Positions 2,618 through 64,000 of a stretch of 64,000 nt of DNA are shown here, in pieces (the stretch's first letter is position 1; the number at the start of each line of letters is the position of its first letter). The DNA lies in the IMG/VR virus record IMGVR_UViG_3300023178_000006. One strand, given 5' to 3'. A model generated the notes under the pieces. The model was not told the DNA's origin, made no database searches, and saw only the letters and a program-made list of their open reading frames with translations. The stretch comes from a virus (lineage: Duplodnaviria; Caudoviricetes). The position numbers and the translations under genes are program-made.

Positions 2618-2651
2618 AAATTAATATAGCAAAATAAATAGGGACTTAACA

Positions 2652-3563
2652 ATGAAAAACTTTAAAGATGTTCTCTCAGAAATCGCCCAACCAAAAAGTG
2701 GCGATGAGAAAAAGTTTAAAGACTTACATAAAATAGAATTAATCAAGCACCCAGTAGCACCTGATAATCAGTTTACTGGAGAGATTGATGGTGTGGAAAG
2801 GAAGGCAAGACCTGCTGACCAAGATGGCGATAAGAATTACGACCCACATCTCGATAAGAAAGATAAGCCATTTAAATTACCAAGAGATACAGGTGGTGGT
2901 GCATTAAGAAAAGAGAATACTGAAGTTTCTTTTAAAGATTTAATGAACAAAATCACATCAGAGGAAGACCTTCTTGAAAGTCCCCAAGAAGAAATTCCAA
3001 TGATGATGAAACAGCTTCATTATATTTGCTATGCTTGTGAAGACTTAATGGAATTCTTAGCAACTGACGAAATTGACCCAGAAGAATGGTGGCAAAATAA
3101 GTTGGCTCAAGTATTTGGTAACGTTAAATCATTACACGCTTATGCAAAAGGTAGTGAAAAAGCAGCTGAAGCAGAAAAAGACATTGACCTAGGTAGTGAT
3201 GATGTTGAAGAACAATATGAAAGTATTGATGAAGAAATAGCAGAACTTCTTCATGAAGAAAAATGTTCATGTTGTGGAAACGAAATTACTAAAGACGGAT
3301 GTGGATGCGATGAAGATTGCCCACACTGTGGTGGAAAGGGAAAAGTAGATGAAGCAGTCCAAGTTAAACCAATCAGGGCTGGGCAGTTGGTATTAGGTAA
3401 CAGAAAAAGAGTTTCTGTAAAACCTCAAGATGCAAAGTTATTAGACAAGATGTTTAAGACTTTAAGAGATAAAAAGAACAAGGAAGAAATGTACGAACTT
3501 TTAATGAGTAATGAAAGAGGGTACAACGAAATATTAGACTTTGCTAAAAAAGCAGGTATATAA
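2652..3563 (+). CDS. Probable head-internal/prohead-associated protein with Cys-rich segment
   Basis: Lies between gp20 and gp21; N-terminus MKNFKDVLSE; internal CSCCG...CGCDEDCPHCGG. Confidence 0.6.
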   Translation: MKNFKDVLSEIAQPKSGDEKKFKDLHKIELIKHPVAPDNQFTGEIDGVERKARPADQDGDKNYDPHLDKKDKPFKLPRDTGGGALRKENTEVSFKDLMNKITSEEDLLESPQEEIPMMMKQLHYICYACEDLMEFLATDEIDPEEWWQNKLAQVFGNVKSLHAYAKGSEKAAEAEKDIDLGSDDVEEQYESIDEEIAELLHEEKCSCCGNEITKDGCGCDEDCPHCGGKGKVDEAVQVKPIRAGQLVLGNRKRVSVKPQDAKLLDKMFKTLRDKKNKEEMYELLMSNERGYNEILDFAKKAGI

Positions 3564-3841: not shown

Positions 3842-4525
3842 ATGAAATTAATTACTGAAGTTAACGAAACTTGCGAAGTATTAACCGAAGCTAAAGAGGA
3901 CGGAAAAAAGTCTTACTTTATCGAAGGTATCTTCATGCAAGGCGACATTAAAAATCGCAACGGAAGAATTTATCCATGCGACACTTTAGAGAATGAAATG
4001 AATCGTTATAACGAGCAATTCATTGAATCTAAAAGAGCGCTTGGTGAACTAGGACATCCTGACGGTCCTACGATTAACGGAGACCGTGTTTCTCATTTGA
4101 TAACTAATATGAAACGCGAAGGTAATGATTTTTACGGTAAAGCAAAAATCTTATCAACTCCAATGGGTGAGATTGTCAAAACTTTCATAGACGAGGGAGT
4201 TAAAATTGGCGTTTCAACAAGAGGTTTAGGCTCGGTAAAACAATTGAAGGATGGCGTTATGGAAGTTCAAAAAGATTTCCATTTAGCGACAGTGGACATT
4301 GTAACTGACCCTTCAGCTCCTAATGCTTTTGTAAATGGTATTATGGAGAATAGAGAGTATTACTACGACATCGCTTCTGCGTCTTGGAGAGCTCAGGAAG
4401 TAACTGAGGTAATCGAAGAGATTGTTGAAGAAGTTGAGAAAAAAATCAACCGAGTGGTACGTAAAATTGATGAAGAAACGGCAGCAAGAATGTTTAGTAC
4501 ATTCGTTCGTTCTTTGAGAAAATAA
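3842..4525 (+). CDS. gp21: Prohead protease
   Basis: IEGIFMQGDIKNRNGRIYP, ALGELGHP, GVSTRGLGS and DIVTDPSAPNAFV. Confidence 0.97.
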   Translation: MKLITEVNETCEVLTEAKEDGKKSYFIEGIFMQGDIKNRNGRIYPCDTLENEMNRYNEQFIESKRALGELGHPDGPTINGDRVSHLITNMKREGNDFYGKAKILSTPMGEIVKTFIDEGVKIGVSTRGLGSVKQLKDGVMEVQKDFHLATVDIVTDPSAPNAFVNGIMENREYYYDIASASWRAQEVTEVIEEIVEEVEKKINRVVRKIDEETAARMFSTFVRSLRK

Positions 4526-5643: not shown

Positions 5644-6972
5644 ATGTCAAACTATCAACAACTCGTGGAAAAGTGGGAGCCAATTTTAGAGCACGACTCT
5701 TTTTCACCAATTAGCGATCAACATAGGAAAGCAGTAACAGCTACTATCCTAGAGAACACAGAAAGAGCACTTTCTGAAACAGGTGACTTGTCTGCAAACA
5801 TGACAAGCCTTCTTTCAGAAGCACCTACCAACGATGCTGGTACAGGTGGTTTCTCTGCAAGTGTATCTCCAGGAAATGCAGCAGCTGGTCCAACAGCTGG
5901 TTATGACCCTATCTTGATTTCATTAGTACGTAGAGCTATTCCTAACCTAATCGCTTACGATATCTGTGGTGTTCAGCCAATGACTGGCCCAACAGGTTTA
6001 ATCTTCGCGATGAGAGCACGTTACGGTTCTCAAGGTGGTGCGGAAGCTTTATATGCTGAAGCCGATACCGACTTTGGTGGTACTGGTACACACGCAAATA
6101 CTTTGCCAAACGCTAATACAACGCTTATTACAACTGGTACAGGTATGGACACAGCAGCGGCTGAAGCTTTAGGCGACGGTCAAGGTACAAACTTCGCAGA
6201 AATGGCATTCTCTATTGAGAAAGTTACTGTTGCTGCTAAGACACGTGCTTTAAAAGCTGAATACACAACTGAACTTGCTCAAGACTTAAGAGCAGTCCAC
6301 GGCCTAGACGCTGAAACAGAATTGGCTAACATTCTTCAATCTGAAATCTTAACAGAAATCAACCGTGAAGTTGTTAGAACAATCTACAAAACAGCTGAAG
6401 TAGGTGGTGACAATACTGCTGCTTCTGGAGTATTCGACTTAGACGTTGATGCAAACGGAAGATGGTCAGTTGAGAAGTTCAAAGGCTTAATGTTCCAAAT
6501 CGAACAAGAAGCTAACGCTATCGCAAAAGGAACTCGTAGAGGGAAAGGTAACATCGTTATTTGTTCTTCAGACGTAGCTTCTGCATTGCAAATGGCTGGT
6601 GTATTGGATTACGCTCCTGCCTTAAACTCTAACTCTTTAGAAGTTGATGACACAGGTAATACTTTTGCTGGTGTTCTTAACGGAAGATTCAGAGTATACG
6701 TTGACCCATTCGCAGGCGGCAACTACTTAGTAGTTGGTTATAAGGGTTCATCTGCATTTGATGCAGGTTTATTCTACTGCCCATACGTTCCTTTACAAAT
6801 GGTTCGTGCGGTTGGTGAGAACAGCTTCCAACCAAAAATTGGATTCAAGACTCGTTACGGAATGGTTGCAAACCCATTCGCTGAAGGTGACGTTTCTAAC
6901 CAAGGTTTGGGTGCTCTTACTCAAGACGTCAACAAGTACTACAGAAAAATTAGAGTCACAAACTTATTCTAA
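5644..6972 (+). CDS. gp23: Major capsid protein
   Basis: DPILISLVRR, GVQPMTGPTGLIFAMR, KTRALKAEYT and FQPKIGFKTRYG. Confidence 0.98.
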   Translation: MSNYQQLVEKWEPILEHDSFSPISDQHRKAVTATILENTERALSETGDLSANMTSLLSEAPTNDAGTGGFSASVSPGNAAAGPTAGYDPILISLVRRAIPNLIAYDICGVQPMTGPTGLIFAMRARYGSQGGAEALYAEADTDFGGTGTHANTLPNANTTLITTGTGMDTAAAEALGDGQGTNFAEMAFSIEKVTVAAKTRALKAEYTTELAQDLRAVHGLDAETELANILQSEILTEINREVVRTIYKTAEVGGDNTAASGVFDLDVDANGRWSVEKFKGLMFQIEQEANAIAKGTRRGKGNIVICSSDVASALQMAGVLDYAPALNSNSLEVDDTGNTFAGVLNGRFRVYVDPFAGGNYLVVGYKGSSAFDAGLFYCPYVPLQMVRAVGENSFQPKIGFKTRYGMVANPFAEGDVSNQGLGALTQDVNKYYRKIRVTNLF

Positions 6973-44874: not shown

Positions 44875-46070
44875 AATTCTTTAAACGTCTCCTTCAATGC
44901 AGATACGAGGTCTTCCATCATACCATTGGTGTGTAATGGTGTTGGTGTAATTCTAAGTCGTTCAGTACCAACATCGACTGTTGGATAATTAATTGGTTGA
45001 ATATAAATTCCATACTCGTTTAATAACCTATCTGACATTGCTTTAGTTCTTTTTGCATCTCTTACCATCACTGGAAGAATATGCGTTGTAGATGCTTCAT
45101 GCACCTCTATATTATTATCTATAAAAAGTTCACGTAGCGTTTGAGCTCGTTCTTGATGTTGTTCTCTAAGTTCGTTGTGTTCTTTTAACCATCTTATTGA
45201 AGCAATAGCACCTGCACACATAACAGGACTTAACGATGTGGTGAATATAAATCCACTGGCGACACTTCTAATGGCATCTAAGACAATATCTTCTCCAACA
45301 ATATAACCACCATGGCCACCAAAAGCCTTGCCTAGAGTGCCATTTATGATATCGACTCTATCAGATAGACCTAATTTTTCACAATATCCAGCACCTGTAT
45401 TACCATATAAACCAACTGCATGTACTTCGTCAATATATGTAATTGCATTATACTTATCTGCTAAATCGCATATTTCTTTAATCGGCGCAACATCACCGTC
45501 CATACTATACACTGATTCAAAAACAATACAAGGAACTTGATTGCTCATTTGAGCTGTCTGTAATGCCAACTCTAATTCGTCCATGTTATTATGTTCCCAG
45601 ATAATTTTTTCAGCACGACTATGTTTAATACCCATAATCAATGATGCGTGATTTTTATTATCTGATACGAAACAAATATTTGGAATGATTCGTGATAGTG
45701 CAATCATCGTCCATTCATTAGCAACATAAGCTGATGTGAACAATAATCCTTTTTCTTTTTTATGGAGTTTTGCTAGTGTTCTTTCGAGAGTAACGTGATA
45801 GTGAGATGTTCCACCAATATTTCTTGTACCACCACTTCCCGAACCTGTCTTGTCGAGCGCGGTTTGCATAGCATCAATAACATATTTGTTTTGACCCATG
45901 CACAAGTAATCGTTGGAACACCAGTTAACTATTGTTTTTGGAGAATATTTAGAATACCAGGTTGCCTTAGGAAAGTTGCCTCTTTCACGCACTATGTCGT
46001 TAAAGACTCTATATTTTCCTTCGTCTTTTAATGTATCAATAACATTCTGAAAATATGCTTTTTCAATCAT
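44871..46070 (-). CDS. hemA: 5-aminolevulinate synthase (PLP-dependent, C4 pathway)
   Basis: [42 protein letters not shown] and FIFTTSL. Confidence 0.92.
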
Positions 46071-50853: not shown

Positions 50854-51480
50854 TTATTTTACGGTTTTGACTCTACCCGTTTTAGGGTCTACTAGATATG
50901 CGAAATATTCGACTTCAGGAAATTCTTTCTTAAGGCTTAGAAGAGCTTTTAAGTTATCTAAATGGTCATCAAACAGACGTATTCTTCCATACTCTCCTGT
51001 CTTTAGATACTTTCGAAACACCACTTTCTTATTTTCAGCAGCGTTTCTTCCACCAAGATTACCAGCACGCTCAACATATACACCTTCTCTACGATTTCCT
51101 AAAGGTATTCCGTGAGCTTCAAACGTTTTCATAAAGAGATTCTTATCGTCCATGTCAGCACGTGCTGTAACAATAATAACTCTACTACCAGTTTTCGTGG
51201 CATTCTTTATGATAGCTTTTGCTTTTTGGATTATTTTTCCGATAGGTGTTGCGGTTTGATAGAATATTTTTGACGATTTAAATTCACCGTAGTCCCATTC
51301 CTCACCAGACTTTAATTTATAATCGTTATATTCTTTAGGAGTAAGAGATTTAACCTGTTTGGTTTTCTTATTAAGAACACGTACACGAGCTTTAGATACA
51401 AACATCGTATCATCGACGTCAAAGATTGTCAATCCTTTCGAACCTCTTTTCTCTATCAAATATTCTTCGAATCTTTTCAT
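50854..51480 (-). CDS. HAD-superfamily protein with capsid-targeting-like N-terminus
   Basis: MKRFEEYLIE, then IFDVDDT, IIVTAR and LFDD. Confidence 0.75.
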   Translation of the reverse strand: MKRFEEYLIEKRGSKGLTIFDVDDTMFVSKARVRVLNKKTKQVKSLTPKEYNDYKLKSGEEWDYGEFKSSKIFYQTATPIGKIIQKAKAIIKNATKTGSRVIIVTARADMDDKNLFMKTFEAHGIPLGNRREGVYVERAGNLGGRNAAENKKVVFRKYLKTGEYGRIRLFDDHLDNLKALLSLKKEFPEVEYFAYLVDPKTGRVKTVK

Positions 51481-54469: not shown

Positions 54470-54925
54470 TTAAACTTCTTCCATCCGTGACATGAGGCGC
54501 TCTGCTCTGTTTGTCACTTGACGATACCATTTGGAATCTCTACCTTCAACTGCGGCAGTTTTCCAATCACCTTCTAATAATGCAGCATTAAATTTTTTGA
54601 ATCCACTCAAACGAGTACGACCCATGTTAAACATCATGTTAACCAAGATTTGCTGGACTTCGCCGGGAAAGTCTCCAAAGTTCCCTTCTCCGTATAGAGC
54701 GTGACATTCTCCGAGGGCAATGTCAAAATCTCTGTCGAAACACGTCCTAACTCTTTCCTCACTAACTTCTGTACCAACTGGTTTTCCAAATTCCTCGTCA
54801 CTGTCGAGGATAAGATGACCGACTCCAAAAGTGGGATACCCGAGGTGGTCGTTATAGATGGCATAGACAACTCCTTCGTCGATTTTTAGTTGTTCGAATA
54901 CTGCTTCTTTATCTTCAATTTTCAT
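54470..54925 (-). CDS. Endolysin, GH24 T4-lysozyme-like
   Basis: LKIDEG...DHLGYPTFGVGHL, NMMFNMG and SKWYRQVTNRA. Confidence 0.9.
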   Translation of the reverse strand: MKIEDKEAVFEQLKIDEGVVYAIYNDHLGYPTFGVGHLILDSDEEFGKPVGTEVSEERVRTCFDRDFDIALGECHALYGEGNFGDFPGEVQQILVNMMFNMGRTRLSGFKKFNAALLEGDWKTAAVEGRDSKWYRQVTNRAERLMSRMEEV

Positions 54926-55607
54926 TTTCTGACATCCTTGACATAAAGTCAATAAAATTTTTCTTTTTATATTTACCTTGAGCTTTCTTAGACACGCCAG
55001 GTTCACCTGACGCACCTACACCCAAACCTGCAATAGCACCGCCACCGACTCCGGTGACTTCTTCAACATCGTCCATATATCCTTTTTCATTAAGCCATTT
55101 CTCAACTGCTTGTCTTATATCATAAGAAGATGAGTTTGCTGTTTTTAAATCGAGTAATAATTTACGAAGTTCTCCTTTATCATCTTTAGAAACTTTTTTC
55201 TTAGCTTCATCTAATTTGATTTCTTGTTCTTCGATAATGTCTGCATATTCCTCGACGAATCGATTCATAGCATTCTCAATATACTCTTCATCTATTTCAG
55301 CACTTTCAAAAAGAGTACCAGTTTTATTTTGGTATTCTTCAGATTCTTTAATTAACCAAAGTGCTGCAGCATAACTCGCTAACCTTGTTTGGCCGCCTGG
55401 TAATTTAGCTAGTAGTTTTTTAAGATTTAAAATAAGTTGGTCAAATATACCAAATGCTTTCCTTTGAGATGCTTTCGTAAAGTCACGTCGACGCACAAGT
55501 ATATTACCTTTTGCATCGATAATTCCTTCTTTAAAAGCAGCCCATTTATTAAAAGGCGTAACTAGCCTCTTAATAAAACTAAAAACTAAAAATAAATCAA
55601 CTACCAT
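54915..55607 (-). CDS. Hypothetical protein
   Basis: FIKRLVTPFNKWAAFKEGIIDAKG...YAAALWLIKE. Confidence 0.75.
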   Translation of the reverse strand: MVVDLFLVFSFIKRLVTPFNKWAAFKEGIIDAKGNILVRRRDFTKASQRKAFGIFDQLILNLKKLLAKLPGGQTRLASYAAALWLIKESEEYQNKTGTLFESAEIDEEYIENAMNRFVEEYADIIEEQEIKLDEAKKKVSKDDKGELRKLLLDLKTANSSSYDIRQAVEKWLNEKGYMDDVEEVTGVGGGAIAGLGVGASGEPGVSKKAQGKYKKKNFIDFMSRMSENEN

Positions 55608-55982
55608 TTAAATTCCTTTTAACCTCTCCATAATAAGCTCATCACTTATTATACTGTCAGCGTTGATACTAATATCATCGTATCCTATGACTGGTGGCAT
55701 AAAGTTTAAGTATTCAACAAAAGGTTTTAAATACTCGTGATACTCATGCAACCTCATAAACAACATATTAGTAGCAATTGGTCCAAACACATTGAATATT
55801 ACAATGAGATGGTTTAAAATCAACCTTTCTTTCAGTTCACCTTCTGCTCTGTATCGACTGAATAATTTTCTGAGGTATTGGAACCTCTTCATATCTTCTT
55901 CAAACTCTGACATCTCAGTACACTGAGGATTGTCATAATGCTTCATTGCATATAGCAGAAAGGTTGATTCTGTTAACTTCAT
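55608..55982 (-). CDS. Hypothetical protein
   Basis: FLLYAMKHYDNPQC...LKERLILNH. Confidence 0.8.
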   Translation of the reverse strand: MKLTESTFLLYAMKHYDNPQCTEMSEFEEDMKRFQYLRKLFSRYRAEGELKERLILNHLIVIFNVFGPIATNMLFMRLHEYHEYLKPFVEYLNFMPPVIGYDDISINADSIISDELIMERLKGI

Positions 55983-56670: not shown

Positions 56671-57411
56671 TTATCTTGGTGTCGGTTGACTCAAGATTCT
56701 ATCTTTTTCTGAATCAGAAATCTCTTTAGCTTTATCTCTATATCTTTCACCCTCGCCATAAGACATTCTGTCGTATCGAGCTTGACCACCAGCTAATGCA
56801 ATTGCAATTCTGTGATAATCATGAGAAGAATAGCCGTCTTTGCCTTTTTCTAATCCACCTTTGATGTGTTCATCAACTTTTTTTTTCACTTTAGCTTTTG
56901 CAGCTGATTTAAGATAATTAGCGTTTAAAGAATCGCATCCACCTTCTTTAACTTCTTCGCCGTCATCATCTTTACCTTCTTTATCTTTTGCGATGGCTTT
57001 CTTAATTGCTTTACGCTTCTTGTGTAGGTACTCATCTGAATCATCTACATCACCATCATTGTCGATATCTGCATCTGCTTGACCGACTGGGTCCATTTTC
57101 TTAGCTTCATCCTTTTGGTTTTTATATAATATAATACCTGCTTGAGGATGATAAACATCGTCTTTAACATCGTTAACTGTTTCAGCGTCCTCGTCTGCAC
57201 CTAAGTATTTTTTAGCATAAGAAACGATAGCTTTCTCATCACCTTGTAAAATTACTACGGCGCCAGGATTAGAACTCCCAATCTTTTTCATAGTAAAACC
57301 TTTCTTATCTGCGATTTTACCAGTGAAGTGGCTAACTTTTAAATTAGCTTCAACTAATGGTTTACGGACGGATGCTTCCATAAACATATCAATTTTATCT
57401 TTAAATGACAT
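56671..57411 (-). CDS. Probable head-internal modular protein
   Basis: MSFKDKIDMFME; KMDPVGQADADIDNDGDVDDSDEYL module. Confidence 0.6.
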   Translation of the reverse strand: MSFKDKIDMFMEASVRKPLVEANLKVSHFTGKIADKKGFTMKKIGSSNPGAVVILQGDEKAIVSYAKKYLGADEDAETVNDVKDDVYHPQAGIILYKNQKDEAKKMDPVGQADADIDNDGDVDDSDEYLHKKRKAIKKAIAKDKEGKDDDGEEVKEGGCDSLNANYLKSAAKAKVKKKVDEHIKGGLEKGKDGYSSHDYHRIAIALAGGQARYDRMSYGEGERYRDKAKEISDSEKDRILSQPTPR

Positions 57412-57439: not shown

Positions 57440-57697
57440 CTATTTATCTTTTGGAGTTATCTTAATTATTAAATTATTAACTCCCTTTATTATTCTGTGG
57501 TACTCGTTTTCCTTAATCGTAAACTTCATACCAGGTTTTAATAACCAAGGTAATGCACCTTCCCATTGAAATTGCCAACCATCTCCTTCGAGAATTTCAA
57601 TTTCACGCGTTTCATTATCTCTATGCCAAACGAACTCTTCGTCTGGTTTATCAACAAAAAACACCCGACGGTCTTGCACGTCAAGGTAAGGATTCAT
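57440..57697 (-). CDS. Cupin-like small protein
   Basis: EFVWHRD...EILEG.GWQFQ...YHRIIKG. Confidence 0.7.
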   Translation of the reverse strand: MNPYLDVQDRRVFFVDKPDEEFVWHRDNETREIEILEGDGWQFQWEGALPWLLKPGMKFTIKENEYHRIIKGVNNLIIKITPKDK

Positions 57698-57708: not shown

Positions 57709-57927
57709 CTATTTAATTAAACCAGCAATTAGCTTAACACCATCAATAATTTTCTGTGCTAAGATTTTGTTTTCTTCTAATTCTAAATCTGCATCTATCT
57801 TAGAAAGGTCAACTAAATCTTCTACTAATTCTTCGTATTCTGACTGATTTAAATCTCCGTCTTCTAAAAGACTTTTGTACTCAAGAACTTTTTGTTCTAT
57901 TTCAACTTGCCATACTTCTAAGCTCAT
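57709..57927 (-). CDS. Small acidic hypothetical protein
   Basis: 72 aa, coupled to the upstream lipoprotein. Confidence 0.7.
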   Translation of the reverse strand: MSLEVWQVEIEQKVLEYKSLLEDGDLNQSEYEELVEDLVDLSKIDADLELEENKILAQKIIDGVKLIAGLIK

Positions 57928-58310
57928 TTCCTATCTCCAAATGTTTCCAATGCTGTAGATGTTATATCATGTATGTTTGTTCTTTTAATCTTACAATATG
58001 CTTCGCTTGGTTCATCACGCTCTACTAACTCAGATGTTAATCCGTGAATACCAGCGTATATATCTACAATATTAGAATTTAATCTGTGTTCTGCATAAGT
58101 ATGCAAGTACATAGCTCTATAATTCATTTGACTTAATGTAGATTTAGTACACCAACTTGATTGAGGCATAATAGAAATCACATTTAATTCTACTAATTTG
58201 CCATATTCAACGTTATCAAATTCGCTAGGTAAATATTTACCTACGTTAGCACAACTACTTAATAATAATGCTAATGTTCCTATTAAAAAATATTTCATAG
58301 TGTTTACCAA
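57924..58310 (-). CDS. Lipoprotein
   Basis: Lipobox LSS-C after a hydrophobic signal. Confidence 0.75.
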   Translation of the reverse strand: MVNTMKYFLIGTLALLLSSCANVGKYLPSEFDNVEYGKLVELNVISIMPQSSWCTKSTLSQMNYRAMYLHTYAEHRLNSNIVDIYAGIHGLTSELVERDEPSEAYCKIKRTNIHDITSTALETFGDRK

Positions 58311-58684
58311 AAATATGAGCCGCCACCTTTAAGTCCTAATGATTTTGCGTATTTAGGCAATCTACATGCCCAATAACCAGGACTTAATTTATCTGTTTTT
58401 GTATCACAATTATGTCGAGCAGCGAATGACCTTGCAGCGTCTCTATCATTAATTTTAGAGGTCAACCCACCTTTCTCGTCACCGAATTGAATCTTCTTAA
58501 CATTACCTGTTTGAGGATTGCGTACATATACAACATACTTTTTATCACCAGAACTTCGCTTCGGTTTGTTTAGTTCTGGTTCTTTTTCTTCCTCAAACTC
58601 AATCATTGGTTGTTCTAAAGGAACTGTAACTCCTTCATACAAACCAAAGTTTGATTCATTTAAAAAATCATGAAATCCTTTCAT
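58304..58684 (-). CDS. Hypothetical protein with capsid-targeting-like N-terminus
   Basis: MKGFHDFLNE; KKYVVYV...FAARHNC...GYWAC. Confidence 0.75.
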   Translation of the reverse strand: MKGFHDFLNESNFGLYEGVTVPLEQPMIEFEEEKEPELNKPKRSSGDKKYVVYVRNPQTGNVKKIQFGDEKGGLTSKINDRDAARSFAARHNCDTKTDKLSPGYWACRLPKYAKSLGLKGGGSYFW

Positions 58685-60432
58685 TAGACTTTAATGCTCG
58701 CTCTCTTCAGAGATGCTAAGACGTTCTTAAATACTTTTTTGTCCATGTGAAGAACATCAGCCATACCTGTAATTGGAGCACCTTCTAAATTTTTTGGAAT
58801 AGAATTACCAGATGCAGTCATTGCTCCACCCTTTGATACTTTTCTATCCATTACGATAGCAACATCATTTCCGCTAACACATACTTTAAACTCAGGTGAT
58901 GCGAATACACACTTAAGATTAGAATCTGTGAGGCTGAAATTTTCTTCTAAATCTACACTTTCATCAACGCCAGCAGCCTTTTTAATCTGACTAATTTCGT
59001 CTCTTAATCTGTCAGCTAAAATTTCATGGTCTTTAATTTTCTGTCTCAGTTTACCAACTTTATCCTTGTCGGCATCACTTAATTTGGCGTTACCATATTT
59101 GTCTGTTAGCTTTTCTTCTAAACTTTCAGGTAGGGAAACTTTCTTAGCGCGTTTTCTCATTTTATCGAGTAAGTTACGTGCCATAGTTTTCATTCTACCT
59201 AATAAAGCTTTTTCTTCAAGTTCTTCCCAACCTTCGATTTGTGCTTCTTCTCTATAATCTTTACGAATATGTTGAATTGCTCTCCACAATTCTTCACGAG
59301 TCATTGTATCACCAGCACCAACATTAGAATATCTTGTCATGCTGAACATCTTTTCCATTTCGTTGTAAATAGCTTCGTTGTCTAATTTACTCTTTGCATA
59401 TTTTCTTAATTCGCGGTTTGCTTCAGCATTGAGCTTTGCATTTTCTCTTTCACTGTCTCCAATAAAAGCAAAGTAATAATCACCGTCATAGACTGGGTAT
59501 GATAGAGATAACCAAGACTTCTTCAACGCACTATTGTTATGATACTTTTTAAATGAATCTTCGTTATCAATAATCCATTGTTGTTCTTGCTTATTAACAC
59601 CTACTGCTCTTGCGTAATCTTCAATGGATTGTGGTTTTGACATTGCTGCTTCATTAATTGTTTCTTCATTTGTACCACAATATTGTGCATATAGTTCGTT
59701 GAATTTAGCTTCACTACAACCATATTTTTCTTTTATCTTTTCATACATTTCATGTTTAGCACAACCTGATGCATGAAGTTTTTGCATTTCTTTAACACAA
59801 GAACCTTCGTTATATTCTTGTAAACCTTTAATCTTTGGTAAACCATACCAATCGTAAGTAGCGAATCGAGCGATACTCTCTGCGGATTCTTTAATCTTTT
59901 CGTTATAAGCATAACCTTTTAAAGGCTCATCTGCTTTAACTCCAGCTGGTTTCTTTTTCTTTTTACCAACAGAAATATCATCAACTTCTACTTCAACTGT
60001 ATCTTTTTCTGACTCTTTTGTATTCTTTTTTAATACATTAGGACTTACTTCGTGAGTTTCATCACCGATACCAATTTTAACATAGTCTTTTCCATTTCCT
60101 AGTACCGTTGCTTTCTTCCCTTTGTATGTAACAGTTGAACGCTCAGGAAATTCAGAGGCAATCCTAGCGATATCTGATTTTAAACTTTCATCGATACATT
60201 GTTGTAATTCTTCTTTTGATTCAAATGGTACTTCTTTATAACCTTGACTCTTAAGGTCAGCAATCTTCTTCTCATTACCTTTACGCTTCATTGAAGCACG
60301 ATGATGTCCACTTGCATCGTCTTTAGCTAACTTAATATACAGGTGTCTATCCTTTTTAGGTGTAGACCATTTCTTGACTAAGTCGTCTCGGCCATAGAAT
60401 GAGCCTTCAGTATGTTGTTTGAAACTTTTCAT
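58684..60432 (-). CDS. Large modular probable head-internal protein
   Basis: Start MKSFKQHTE with GGAG-like site; modules bounded by IDE/INE/LEE. Confidence 0.7.
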   Translation of the reverse strand: MKSFKQHTEGSFYGRDDLVKKWSTPKKDRHLYIKLAKDDASGHHRASMKRKGNEKKIADLKSQGYKEVPFESKEELQQCIDESLKSDIARIASEFPERSTVTYKGKKATVLGNGKDYVKIGIGDETHEVSPNVLKKNTKESEKDTVEVEVDDISVGKKKKKPAGVKADEPLKGYAYNEKIKESAESIARFATYDWYGLPKIKGLQEYNEGSCVKEMQKLHASGCAKHEMYEKIKEKYGCSEAKFNELYAQYCGTNEETINEAAMSKPQSIEDYARAVGVNKQEQQWIIDNEDSFKKYHNNSALKKSWLSLSYPVYDGDYYFAFIGDSERENAKLNAEANRELRKYAKSKLDNEAIYNEMEKMFSMTRYSNVGAGDTMTREELWRAIQHIRKDYREEAQIEGWEELEEKALLGRMKTMARNLLDKMRKRAKKVSLPESLEEKLTDKYGNAKLSDADKDKVGKLRQKIKDHEILADRLRDEISQIKKAAGVDESVDLEENFSLTDSNLKCVFASPEFKVCVSGNDVAIVMDRKVSKGGAMTASGNSIPKNLEGAPITGMADVLHMDKKVFKNVLASLKRASIKV

Positions 60433-60439
60433 TTCCGTT

Positions 60440-61111
60440 CTATCCTCCGAATTCGTGTCCTGCAACACGTTTCATTTGTTTGTTAAATTCTTCTTGTGAA
60501 GGTTTGTCTTTATATAACTTAATTGTGAGGTGAGCTTTTTCTTTGCCCTTAATTCTCCAATTATAACCTTTCTCTTTATGTTCTGGTTTGGTTGTTTTTA
60601 CAACTCGTCTTTTATAACCTGCTTCCCAAGTTTCTGATTTCTTTTCTTCAAGCTCATTCTCTTCATTCTTTAATCGAGCATGACCTTTACGTTTAAAATC
60701 AGTTTCTACTTTTTTCTTAATTAAACTAGCAACCACATTAACATCGTGTAGTTTACCTTTTTGTAAATCGTCATTTAACTTACGACTTATTAATTTAAGT
60801 AAACTCGCAACGATTGCAGAATTTGATGCTGCTAAAGTTGCTTCATCTAAATCCTCACCCATAACCAGTGTCTGTAATTGAGAAATCATAGTGTTCAATA
60901 CTGGCAATGGAAGTGTTTGAAGAACCTGAGCCTGTTTAGACGTTAATCCTTTAATCTTACTTATTGCCTTCTTAATATCTATACGTTTTTCATCAAGGGT
61001 TTCTTCTGGTACACAATTAGGAACCATTTTCTTCCCTTTCTTTTTCATACCGACTTGTTTATAACCGTCCCAACAAGTCTTTTCGTATTGATATTCCAGA
61101 AAGCTTTTCAC
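60440..61111 (-). CDS. Modular probable head-internal protein
   Basis: MKSFLEYQYE; CWDGYKQVGMKKKGKKMVPNCVP module; LDE/LEE junctions. Confidence 0.7.
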   Translation of the reverse strand: MKSFLEYQYEKTCWDGYKQVGMKKKGKKMVPNCVPEETLDEKRIDIKKAISKIKGLTSKQAQVLQTLPLPVLNTMISQLQTLVMGEDLDEATLAASNSAIVASLLKLISRKLNDDLQKGKLHDVNVVASLIKKKVETDFKRKGHARLKNEENELEEKKSETWEAGYKRRVVKTTKPEHKEKGYNWRIKGKEKAHLTIKLYKDKPSQEEFNKQMKRVAGHEFGG

Positions 61112-63376
61112 TTATTTCTTTCCTTTTAAATCTCTTATTTGGTCTCTTATATCTTGGATTTTCATCATTTGCTTCTGTGCCAGTTCTTCTTGCTCATCAG
61201 CACGTCTTTCATTAGCTTCAACACCTGAGTGACCTTTTTTCCTTCCTTCCGAAGCAGCTTTTCTGTATTTACGTTCTGCCTCGTCGTGAACAGCTTGTTG
61301 ATTATAATGAAATTCTAATTTCTTTTTCAATCTTTCAAGTTCTGGTTCTTGTTTTGGTTTTGAGACTACTCTTGGTCCTTGGTTTCCATCGTTACTGTTA
61401 TCTCTATAACCAAAGTGCATACCACGAAGTCCCTCAAAGATTTTTTGTAACTTCATATACTCTCTGTCAATAACAAAATCTCTATCTACAGGAACAGTTC
61501 TCTTACCACCATTATATGTAAATGTAATTTTCTTATCGTCAGTTTCTGGTCTTATGATTTTTCCACCATTGCTTCGTATTTGTTTTTCTACTGTAGAAAC
61601 TGCAACTGCACCTTCCATTATTTCTTCATCGATAGCAAGGTCTTCATCAAATAAACCAGCATCTCTCATTTGTTTTTGAGCATCTCTTTTCGCTCTTGCA
61701 TCCCATTTAGCACTTGCCTTCTGTCTCTTTTCAGCGGCTTTCTTAATCATTAAATAACGTTTTGCTTTTTGGTCTGCAGTCATTGCTTCAGGTAATACGT
61801 CGAAATCGAAGTTTTCAGTAATACCATCATTGATATGTCTTCCTGCTTGGAGATTAGAGATTTGTCTTTGATACTTTTGAATATCTTTCTTTTTCTCTTG
61901 TGCCTTTTGTCTCCATTCATTACCTGTATGAGCACCGAACTTTTCATTACCTTGTGCTGCACTAGCTAATTTCTCGAATTTTCTAGCACGTTCTTGAGCG
62001 CGTTGGATTTTTTCTTTAATCTCTGCGATTTTTTCCATTGCTCTACCTCTATCACCAGAAGCATCTCTACGTCCTTCAGGAGTTTTAGCAAATCTTCTCT
62101 CATAAGATGATAGTGAACCTCTGTAGTATCCATCTTCTTCCATAAGAGCATCTACGATGTCACACTGATGTTCTTCATTCGCTCGTCTTAAAGCATCTGC
62201 AACTCGAGGATGTTTTTGTAAACCTTTTTTCAATCTTGAGATTTTTTGATAAGCTGCACTATAATTACCCTGCTTATATCTTGGGTCATTAGCAATACCT
62301 ATTGCCATTTTAATATCTTTAGATGTAATAGGACTATCGAAATCGTCTCTTTCTTTTTTCTTATCGAGTTTTGCTTGCGCAGTATTGACACCAGAAATTC
62401 TTTTATTTAACCTTGAGGCAGCGTCAGGATTGCCCTTCGTCATGTCGCCGGACGCTTTACCTGCGTCACTTGTTGCCTTCGCCACATATTTTCTTAGTTT
62501 ATCCTGTGAGATTTCATCTAAATTAGACTCTGGTAAAGACATAATAAATTTAGATACCTTTTGCTTAGGTCCTTCTACGGATATATCTAAACCGCCACTT
62601 CTTGATTTTTTACTGTGTGGTTGTAGCCCAGCTTTCTTAGCGAGTTGAACTGCGACTCTTGCTGTGTCTGCGTCCATATCCACTAACTGAAATTTTTCAT
62701 GACCTTCTTCTAATTCTTCACCAATACCAGCACCGCGGTATTTACTATGGAAACTACTACCAGGTTTTGCATAACTTCTTGCGAGTTGAATCTTATCTTT
62801 TTGGTCTTGTTTTGCAGTACTACCTAATCGAATATGTCTTGCGGCTGCTTGCATACAAGATTTTTCAGAACTGTAGATACCTAATTCTTTACCATCAACA
62901 GTACATTTCCATTTTCCACCTTGTGGAACTACTCTTACCTTTTTACCATCAATATTATACTCATTAGGTCTTATAGTTTTAGTTTGACTTGTTGGTTTTA
63001 ATTCTTCTTCTACTGGCTTTTCAGGTTGAGTTCTTTTAAGCCACTTTTGAATGTCTGTAAATTTACCAGAAATGTGGAGCAACCACATCTTATTACCTTT
63101 AACTTTTTCAGATTTTGCATCGAGATTCATTGCCATTGCTTTACGTTCAGCCTTTGCAGCATCTTGTAATGTTTCAAACTTAAATGATACTGTCATTTCT
63201 AATAGATTAATATTAGTATTGTCAGCTGCAATCTCTGATAAACCTTTCTTTTTCTTTAATGGTTGTTCAGCAGTTTTACCTTGACCAGGTGTGTCTGATG
63301 CAAGTTTATCTTTTGCTGAAGTGGTTCCCCAGAAACCTGCTCCATGCTCTTCGAATAAATTTTTAAATTTCTTCAT
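61112..63376 (-). CDS. 754-aa modular probable head-internal protein
   Basis: MKKFKNLFEE; basic modules separated by L/I-x-E linkers. Confidence 0.75.
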   Translation of the reverse strand: MKKFKNLFEEHGAGFWGTTSAKDKLASDTPGQGKTAEQPLKKKKGLSEIAADNTNINLLEMTVSFKFETLQDAAKAERKAMAMNLDAKSEKVKGNKMWLLHISGKFTDIQKWLKRTQPEKPVEEELKPTSQTKTIRPNEYNIDGKKVRVVPQGGKWKCTVDGKELGIYSSEKSCMQAAARHIRLGSTAKQDQKDKIQLARSYAKPGSSFHSKYRGAGIGEELEEGHEKFQLVDMDADTARVAVQLAKKAGLQPHSKKSRSGGLDISVEGPKQKVSKFIMSLPESNLDEISQDKLRKYVAKATSDAGKASGDMTKGNPDAASRLNKRISGVNTAQAKLDKKKERDDFDSPITSKDIKMAIGIANDPRYKQGNYSAAYQKISRLKKGLQKHPRVADALRRANEEHQCDIVDALMEEDGYYRGSLSSYERRFAKTPEGRRDASGDRGRAMEKIAEIKEKIQRAQERARKFEKLASAAQGNEKFGAHTGNEWRQKAQEKKKDIQKYQRQISNLQAGRHINDGITENFDFDVLPEAMTADQKAKRYLMIKKAAEKRQKASAKWDARAKRDAQKQMRDAGLFDEDLAIDEEIMEGAVAVSTVEKQIRSNGGKIIRPETDDKKITFTYNGGKRTVPVDRDFVIDREYMKLQKIFEGLRGMHFGYRDNSNDGNQGPRVVSKPKQEPELERLKKKLEFHYNQQAVHDEAERKYRKAASEGRKKGHSGVEANERRADEQEELAQKQMMKIQDIRDQIRDLKGKK

Positions 63377-64000
63377 TAGTCCTTACCTTTATGTTGTTTC
63401 CACAAATCCGCGTCTGTTGTTTTTTGTGTTTTACCCCCGGTGGCAAAACTATTAACTCTTGCCAATCCCCACTGAGTAGGAGTAGTTCCGGGTCTGTGAC
63501 CGGTTCTCCATGCAGCAACACCTCTATCGAATACTTTTTTAAGGATTCCATAAGGGATTCCAGTTTTTTCAGCCTTTTTCTTAAGAGATTTTTTAGGATT
63601 GCTTTCAAAGATGAAATCAAGTTCTTCCCCTATTTGCTCAAGTTCTTTAATTTTTGCACTACGTTCTGCTGCTATTTCTTCAGCTTTTTTATTAATTTTA
63701 AAACGTTTATCAACAACTACTGAACCATTACGTGCTAATAACATATGAGGTCTTTTCAAACCTGCTCTTTCGTAATTAGTTTCACCAAACATCTTTTTAA
63801 AATTTTTGGTGTGTTGACTTGGTTTTGTTTCTGCTGTAGCATCACCAGGTGCGGGTTGATATGCTTTAGGATTATCATCGTCCATCTTAGCTTGTTTCTT
63901 AAATTGAGCTTTACGTTTGTCAGCTGTTGACTTTGCTAACCCAGTGTGATATGTTGGGCCTTCATTCATGCGTTGTTCTAATGTATATTCTTTATATGAG
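63376..64000 (-). CDS. Probable head-associated protein, 5' truncated by window edge
   Basis: Frame is open to the edge (SYKEYTLEQR precedes the track Met); contains SLKKKAEKTGIPYGILKKVFDRGVAAW...QWGLARVNSF. Confidence 0.7.
   Translation of the reverse strand, partial: SYKEYTLEQRMNEGPTYHTGLAKSTADKRKAQFKKQAKMDDDNPKAYQPAPGDATAETKPSQHTKNFKKMFGETNYERAGLKRPHMLLARNGSVVVDKRFKINKKAEEIAAERSAKIKELEQIGEELDFIFESNPKKSLKKKAEKTGIPYGILKKVFDRGVAAWRTGHRPGTTPTQWGLARVNSFATGGKTQKTTDADLWKQHKGKD

Follow-up and report, generated by a model that had tools for sequence, protein, structure and literature searches.

Why would a T4-like phage encode, head to tail on one strand, a row of basic proteins in which small domains alternate with short motifs ending in glutamate? 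The question is raised by a 64,000-nucleotide (nt) stretch of the IMG/VR virus record IMGVR_UViG_3300023178_000006 (hereafter, the window), whose minus strand carries genes for proteins of 801, 754, 223, 582 and 126 amino acids (aa), in this order, and a 246-aa gene further on. A first-pass annotation had read several of them as polyproteins processed by the prohead protease. Judging from the comparisons and structure predictions presented below, we place slightly above an even chance the possibility that they are head-cargo polyproteins, loaded into the prohead by means of a capsid-targeting sequence (CTS) and processed by the gp21-type protease of the phage, where both the packaging and the cleavage are what we infer.

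The window comes from a marine T4-like myophage, which encodes a tail sheath and tube, ribonucleotide reductase, primase and other replication genes, and whose head genes in the window include, besides the protease, the gp22 scaffold, the gp20 portal and the gp23 capsid protein. The region was matched to a locus (L010) on a 157-kb metagenomic contig. The nearest cultured relatives, with 62-65% identity in the capsid protein, are the Sinorhizobium phiM12 group, DLP6 and the Methylophilales phage Melnitz; megablast of the region against cultured phages gave no match, and tblastn of the 223-, 246- and 582-aa proteins likewise gave none. Three features absent from the first-pass annotation are brought in here: the N-terminal leader, the promoter, and the 801-aa first gene of the cluster, which lies mostly outside the window.

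Modules that move between genes

A phmmer search with the 754-aa protein as the query against 1.84 billion cluster representatives returned 804 proteins and, apart from two near-orthologues, all of them match one or few segments of the query, in varying positions and orders. With the borders mapped from the starts and ends of these alignments (the 582-aa protein was split into N1 to N7 by the same mapping), the 754-aa protein resolves into about ten modules that fold independently, each of which is found elsewhere reordered or stand-alone. The lysine/arginine-rich character ascribed to this chain is confirmed (K+R 20%, D+E 15%). Its AlphaFold model (mean predicted local distance difference test, pLDDT, 74; predicted template modelling score, pTM, 0.29) has the appearance of beads on a string, i.e., confident mini-domains (two beta-alpha-beta-beta-alpha units, a small beta-sheet domain, helical units plus hairpins, and a mixed helix/three-strand unit) between segments with pLDDT <50. 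In the 582-aa protein, N5 is a compact predicted domain (pLDDT 85.5, pTM 0.77), and the INE and LEE junctions beside it are disordered. The first-pass annotation had opposed modules that fold on their own to a single continuous fold spanning the linkers, and structure prediction gives the former, because the models show separate mini-domains and low-confidence linkers.

Foldseek searches of PDB and AFDB with the 754-aa model and with N5 gave nothing significant, with weak ferredoxin/KH-like rows for two modules of the former and no match for the latter. N5, a 135-residue acidic domain with 29 invariant columns in 37 sequences, may represent an undescribed fold, since its confident model has no PDB or AFDB cluster match.

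Are these modules actually exchanged between genes, as had been proposed? Related architectures demonstrate it directly, because modules are redistributed in one locus and the indels of orthologues are bounded by the sites. In locus L014, whose cluster is syntenic, genes of 161, 445, 124 and 397 aa carry between them the modules that this phage has in its 754-, 223- and 582-aa proteins, and one of the fusions retains an entire former leader internally. A 99%-identical orthologue of the 754-aa protein (P0001) is devoid of residues 289-341, the gap beginning exactly after LDE288; in P0155, a 94%-identical orthologue of the 582-aa protein, 71 extra residues stand between LDE and LSE, and another one (P0152) has a 50-residue insert, from after YNE to before I-x-KE (IVKE). 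In such near-identical orthologues, the cassette indels start at the residue following a junction Glu, and LxE/IxE borders most of them. Furthermore, related phages encode the C-terminal module of the 223-aa protein separately, behind a leader of its own, and the content of the cluster varies between close relatives. For one module alone, at least 545 of 598 candidate IMG/VR stretches were confirmed.

Shuffling of this kind could also take place with no protease involved. The products would then be ordinary uncleaved multidomain late proteins, and the hydrophobic-x-Glu motif would be either a part of a mobile linker-plus-module cassette or a relic of the leader left by fusions. The travelling of the modules as cassettes and the L014 fusion with a whole former leader inside speak for this explanation, which we regard as unlikely, though far from negligible, in view of what is conserved at the junctions.

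Junction motifs and the prohead protease

In the 754-aa open reading frame (ORF), the motifs listed in the first-pass annotation are all found: GLSE at residues 45-48, LLE at 58-60, VEEE at 122-125, LEE at 222-224, LDE at 286-288, ANE at 399-401, LMEE at 411-414, ITE at 519-521, LPE at 281-283 and 528-530, IDEEIME at 582-588 and IFE at 646-648. This ORF contains 15 [LI]xE motifs, compared with 6.6 +/- 2.3 in shuffles (p about 0.001), and gp22 and gp21, which are known substrates of the protease, are also enriched. The idea that the neighbouring ORFs show the same pattern survives in part: the 582-, 223-, 126- and 246-aa proteins fit the scheme, but they show no overall motif excess, with 9 vs 7.0 expected from shuffles in the 582/594-aa ORF, 3 vs 3.0 in the 223-aa one and 1 vs 1.8 in the 246-aa one. 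Given that [LI]xE is short and that these three counts equal expectation, could the pattern be a product of chance in proteins rich in Glu, Leu and Ile? This is extremely improbable, and it is already disfavoured by the placement of the motifs. In the 754-aa protein, 10 of the 15 motif Glu residues lie at most 3 residues from a low-confidence segment of the model (2.9 expected from within-zone shuffles), and the [LI]xE count of the junction zones was matched in 0 of 5000 such shuffles, with module interiors holding 5 vs 3.8 expected. In addition, the [LI]xE cut position falls at most 2 residues from unbiased phmmer alignment starts in 23% of 167 distinct cases, compared with 5.9% for random/control positions, and the motif is conserved over 64 junction contexts.

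These contexts, i.e., the residues upstream of seven modules, were gathered from the phmmer matches and from 80 IMG/VR loci carrying module M6, found via the M6 alignment. P1 is Glu in 50 of the 64 (78%) and P3 is Leu or Ile in 39 (61%), with P2 and P4-P8 variable; in the five modules with a clean register, [LI]xE stands exactly at P3-P1 in 36 of 45 contexts. T4 gp21 is reported to recognize L/I-x-E, cutting behind the Glu, and to depend on little else (PMC9026906), and the junction logo matches that specificity. The conserved feature is not DNA microhomology, because the codons at the junction sites differ; microhomology was looked for at the junctions and not found. All this is hard to accommodate if the proteins stay uncleaved: P3 and P1 are conserved in five unrelated modules while P2, P4-P8 and the codons vary, most internal junctions retain [LI]xE alone, without the MK.F part of a leader, and the motif fits the specificity of a protease that the phage itself encodes. 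On the other side of the balance, uncleaved proteins would agree with the three ORFs devoid of an overall motif excess and with the presence of some modules in phages without gp21.

Has the protease of this phage kept the same specificity? T4 gp21 and the homologue of the phage can be aligned over the conserved core, and the capsid-protein site LLSE↓APTN aligns to the T4 gp23 maturation site FLTE↓AEIG (arrows mark cuts, proposed ones included); the Melnitz capsid protein has FLSE↓AAPT, i.e., the same LSE↓A. Since the gp21 core is alignable and the T4-type capsid cleavage site is kept, it is reasonable to suppose that the L/I-x-E specificity has been retained. In both motif and exposure, the cluster proteins show what characterizes a polyprotein, namely folding units parted by conserved, exposed motifs of a cognate protease.

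Leaders, late promoters and a proposed route into the head

A T4-like leader is present on the five consecutive genes of the cluster and on the gene of an acidic 303-aa protein located among the head genes (Table 1). The T4 CTS, MKTYQEFIAE↓A, was taken from ipII and ipIII in the T4 record; its targeting rests mainly on residues 4 and 7, and its processing on residues 8 and 10 (PMC9026906). By these criteria (aromatic at 4, hydrophobic at 7 and 8, Glu at 10), the leaders of the 126- and 303-aa proteins match in full, the former with an aromatic residue at 4, Phe 7, Leu 8 and Glu 10, as in the T4 CTS. The match is approximate in the 754-, 801-, 582- and 223-aa proteins; the N-terminus of the 801-aa one, MSQTFQEFLDS...AQLDE↓A, is T4-CTS-like. 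The signal of the leaders within the window is modest, because MK.[FY] starts are common in the phage (10 of 104 ORFs), and the evidence appears stronger from the comparison with stand-alone genes than from the window alone. In other phages, stand-alone module genes have a leader of the form MK.FK..[LI].E↓, after which the module follows in the register of the internal [LI]xE. For instance, M4 is preceded by MKSFKQISEE↓ as a stand-alone gene and by ...LEEGHE↓ in this phage; the C-terminal module of the 223-aa protein comes after MKSFKEFISE↓ in locus L024 and after ...NELEE↓ here, with 85-94% identity; and what precedes the Arg-rich module is MKKFSELTSELIE↓ in Melnitz, ...DLIGE↓ in this phage and ...ELGE↓ in phiM12. 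Further recurrent leader classes, MSFKDKID...L.E and M[ST]RY.KTM.EAL.E[VI].E, end in hydrophobic-x-Glu as well. It also speaks for a link between leader and head that non-T4-like phages have these modules without it: the "HVA1-like" module of siphophage Kolga and Roseobacter phage CRP-902 has no leader of this kind, and the CWxGY mini-gene of Kolga likewise has none. On another IMG/VR contig (L078, 403-918), a 171-aa protein composed of the leader MISFKNFRTEINE↓ and M6 is encoded directly upstream of gp21-gp22-gp23, where T4 has its core genes 67 and 68.

As for transcription, an exact T4 late promoter, TATAAATA, is found 39 nt before the ATG of the 801-aa gene (L010 4642; outside the window, ~65820), in a 37-nt intergenic gap. 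This box at the head of the cluster is kept, as a promoter motif only, in three relatives (Melnitz and two metagenomic ones). The four exact plus-strand copies of TATAAATA in the window all precede late-gene starts (the 303-aa gene, gp21, gp23 and a curli operon), and a fifth exact box lies on the minus strand. NATAAATA boxes stand 30-37 nt upstream of the 246-aa gene and of a gene for an acidic 287-aa protein.

The following route can be proposed. The 801-, 754-, 223-, 582- and 126-aa genes would form a late-transcribed cluster of head-cargo precursors, with the 246-aa gene belonging to the same system. The T4-CTS-like leader would take each precursor into the prohead scaffolding core, where the gp21-type protease, as motif conservation suggests, would cut after the Glu of exposed [LI]-x-E, removing the leader and separating the modules; by analogy, the basic products would remain with the DNA inside the head and pass into the host together with it. 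Because the cuts would fall at the junctions, the mature form of a module would not depend on whether it is encoded alone after a leader or as part of a fusion, and the proposal could in this way explain the free movement of modules between genes. When the 754-aa protein is cut in silico at every [LI]xE, nine or ten polypeptides of 39-160 aa result, all with isoelectric points of 9.2-10.2, together with acidic spacers of 3-12 residues between paired sites (48 and 60, 220 and 224, 283 and 288, 521 and 530, 584 and 588).

Might the precursors be loaded and cut, but as assembly or core components instead of delivered cargo? Their role would then be space-filling, charge-neutralising or size-determining, and the fragments would be expelled or kept as inert DNA counter-ions, as in the case of T4 gp22, gp67 and gp68. 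This would be coherent with the many cleavage sites of the T4 core proteins (PMC9026906), with the fact that a leader protein and acidic paralogues are encoded next to head genes or behind late promoters, and with fragments that are simply basic. We judge it quite improbable, considering that the cluster content varies among close relatives, which is unusual for assembly components, and that the modules fold as domains of 50-135 aa instead of being simple peptides.

Nevertheless, several observations weigh against a role as head-cargo polyproteins. Besides the frequency of MK.[FY] starts and the ORFs with motif counts at expectation, some modules (CWxGY, M4 and the local M6 subtype) have no exact [LI]xE directly upstream. 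Several modules also occur in phages without gp21, so the modules are not intrinsically capsid proteins. A HAD-type phosphatase of the window (weak Pfam matches, FDVDDT motif) has a CTS-like start, MKRFEEYLIE, and it stands behind a perfect TTGACA-17-TATAAT (sigma-70) promoter, unfit for a purely late, packaged role. Finally, Foldseek, Pfam and PHROGs revealed no recognisable fold or function in the modules: Pfam and PHROGs gave only DUFs and unknown-function families for the cluster proteins, with no informative match, and the ESM Atlas feature search gave viral hypothetical proteins only. What holds of the original polyprotein interpretation is, then, the shuffling and the gp21-like junction motif; a motif excess is absent from three of the four ORFs, and no module function can be assigned.

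Known systems and genomic surroundings

How do these proteins compare with systems already described? The T4 internal proteins (IPs) IPI, IPII and IPIII, as well as Alt, are CTS-tagged, gp21-processed, injected head proteins. Both they and the cluster proteins belong to T4-type phages with gp21, and share a leader of ~10 residues (aromatic at 4, hydrophobic at 7-8, Glu at 9-10), a late-promoter motif, and basic, hypervariable bodies behind the conserved leader (K+R 18-21% and D+E 14-17% in the cluster, like IPII and IPIII). Unlike the T4 IPs, with a single body and a single N-terminal cut, the cluster proteins are chains of up to ~10 unrelated mini-domains (<=801 aa), each preceded by its own putative site, and no sequence search of them showed similarity to T4 IP bodies.

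Iyer et al. (2017, PMC5512222) described polyvalent proteins in phages and conjugative elements, for which packaging and delivery are predicted. These also carry many unrelated domains per polypeptide in shuffled architectures, and the cluster proteins fall within their range of 2-15 domains. However, polyvalent proteins consist of recognisable enzymatic or effector domains, often with a peptidase of their own (MPTase), whereas the cluster modules are tiny, have no Pfam match except DUF5824 and a weak cytidylyltransferase-like one, and would be processed by the prohead protease; the effector and enzyme domains of polyvalent proteins (ART, MPTase, nucleases, kinases and others) had no Pfam, PHROG or fold match in the cluster proteins. 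In the giant phages phiKZ, 201phi2-1 and SPN3US, inner-body or ejection proteins undergo gp21-like cleavage at S/A-x-E (PMC9026906, PMC10052503), and paired, redundant sites have been described for their head proteins (PMC9026906). Cleavage after Glu at several, often redundant sites is a point of likeness, given the paired sites of the cluster proteins. Yet the giant-phage cuts mostly remove long propeptides from one mature body, while the sites of the cluster part many modules, and the P3 preference of the latter is L/I, as in T4, and not S/A. Regarding the T4 core proteins gp22, gp67 and gp68, gp21 cuts them at many L/I-x-E sites, and some have CTS-like N-termini (e.g., MLKEQLIAE↓A in gp22), but they are acidic, conserved, encoded beside gene 21 and mostly expelled, in contrast to the basic, hypervariable proteins of a separate late cluster.

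Descriptions of the compared systems thus contain no T4-like marine phage with chains of mini-domains linked through prohead-protease sites; the pelagimyophage and Melnitz genome papers make no mention of this cluster, and literature searches tying CTS or polyproteins to such phages found nothing. It is possible, albeit doubtful, that abundant ocean T4-like phages (from the pelagimyophage/methylophage clade and its relatives to the phiM12 group) carry combinatorial cargo: a single leader would bring an entire chain of mini-proteins into the capsid, these would be freed by the head protease at universal junction sites, and new injected effectors would evolve as site-bounded cassettes are inserted, deleted or exchanged among adjacent genes. 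If true, this would be a mechanism of delivery and diversification undescribed in the phage literature searched. Confirmation would bring multi-module precursors into the T4 internal-protein paradigm, which covers single small proteins, and a large portion of marine viral "dark matter" (>800 phmmer representatives) could be read as capsid-delivered cargo. Moreover, the [LI]-x-E junctions and the leader would provide a simple rule to predict mature products and, in phages that infect SAR11, OM43 and related hosts, to pick out candidate proteins for anti-defence or host takeover. Cultured relatives exist, which makes the system testable.

Table 1. Coordinates of the cluster, of the head genes and of other features (window positions in nt unless L010 is named; module limits and motif ends in residues).
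Feature	Position	Strand	Details
gp20 portal	1080-2609
Late promoter TATAAATA of the 303-aa gene	2610-2617
Acidic 303-aa protein	2652-3563	+	Leader MKNFKDVLSE↓; between portal and protease genes (position of T4 gp67/gp68)
gp21-type prohead serine protease (Peptidase_S77)	3842-4525	+	PF03420, E 2.7e-36; proposed processing enzyme
Predicted maturation cleavage site of the major capsid protein, LLSE↓A	5812-5823	+	Aligned with T4 gp23 site
HAD-type phosphatase	50854-51480	-
Acidic paralogues, 175 and 287 aa	53030-54435	-
DUF7207 (124 aa) and 230-aa protein	54915-55982	-
246-aa protein	56671-57411	-	Different conserved leader, MSFKDKID...PLVE↓A; one site at residue 21
Late-promoter-like GATAAATA of the 246-aa gene	57441-57448
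Lipoprotein-like gene	57924-58310	-
126-aa protein	58304-58684	-	Leader MKGFHDFLNE↓, "HVA1-like" basic module
582-aa precursor	58684-60432	-	Leader MKSFKQHTE↓, then N modules
582-aa modules			N1 10-79, N3 146-188, N4 207-258, N5 262-397, N6 408-452, N7 498-582
582-aa junction sites			IDE 82, LQE 206, INE 261, LEE 407, LEE 497
N5	59197-59670	-
223-aa precursor	60440-61111	-	GTG start; leader (M)KSFLEYQYE↓, then CWxGY module, LDE(41)↓, LDE(90)↓ATLAA module, LEE(156)↓ basic C-terminal module
754-aa mosaic precursor	61112-63376	-	Leader MKKFKNLFE↓E, then M1-M10
754-aa modules			M1 1-48, M2 61-118, M3 139-200, M4 226-283, M5/M6 289-413, M7 439-521, M8 531-584, M9 589-648, M10 656-754
754-aa [LI]xE ends			9, 48, 60, 220, 224, 283, 288, 413, 452, 455, 521, 530, 584, 588, 648
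754-aa LLE site	63197-63205
754-aa LEE site	62705-62713
754-aa LDE site	62513-62521
754-aa IME site	61613-61621
754-aa IFE site	61433-61441
801-aa gene, first of cluster	63376-64000 (C-terminal 197-207 residues; last 197 codons, 63376-63969); full gene, L010 4688-7093	-	Leader MSQTFQEFLDS; weak cytidylyltransferase-like region; M6-like module; DUF5824; five [LI]xE sites at 320-352, then very Arg/Lys-rich module

The gene of the 582-aa protein had been listed as a 594-aa ORF (58684-60468, GTG at 60468), which overlaps the 223-aa gene. The ATG at 60432 (MKSFKQHTE...) is most likely the true start, because it has GGAGG upstream and lies 7 nt past the stop of the 223-aa gene.

Outside the cluster, 60 of the 80 M6 IMG/VR loci share neighbours with this region, the commonest being the pair formed by DUF7207 and the 230-aa gene (phrog_18642), which is linked to M6-containing modular genes in most of these 60. 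Homologues of the 230-aa gene are found in the phiM12 group, DLP6, HTVC008M and Melnitz, and DUF7207 adjoins it in the three checked (phiM12, HTVC008M and Melnitz). The 175- and 287-aa acidic proteins (D+E 24% in the latter) are paralogues and possible prohead-core (gp67/gp68-like) proteins; one of them begins MSIEKIIAE↓A, very close to the cleavage context of T4 gp22 and the IPs, and AATAAATA is located ~30 nt upstream of the 287-aa gene. A 10-nt sequence, GGACTTAACA, directly precedes the start codons of the 303-aa (2642-2651, plus strand) and 801-aa (L010 4675-4684) genes; elsewhere in the window it has no exact copy and a single 1-mismatch match, at 45226. Finally, within the cluster there is a small lipoprotein-like gene (MKYFLIGTLALLLSSC...), kept in the related loci L014 and L024, whose product may be a superinfection-exclusion or envelope protein.

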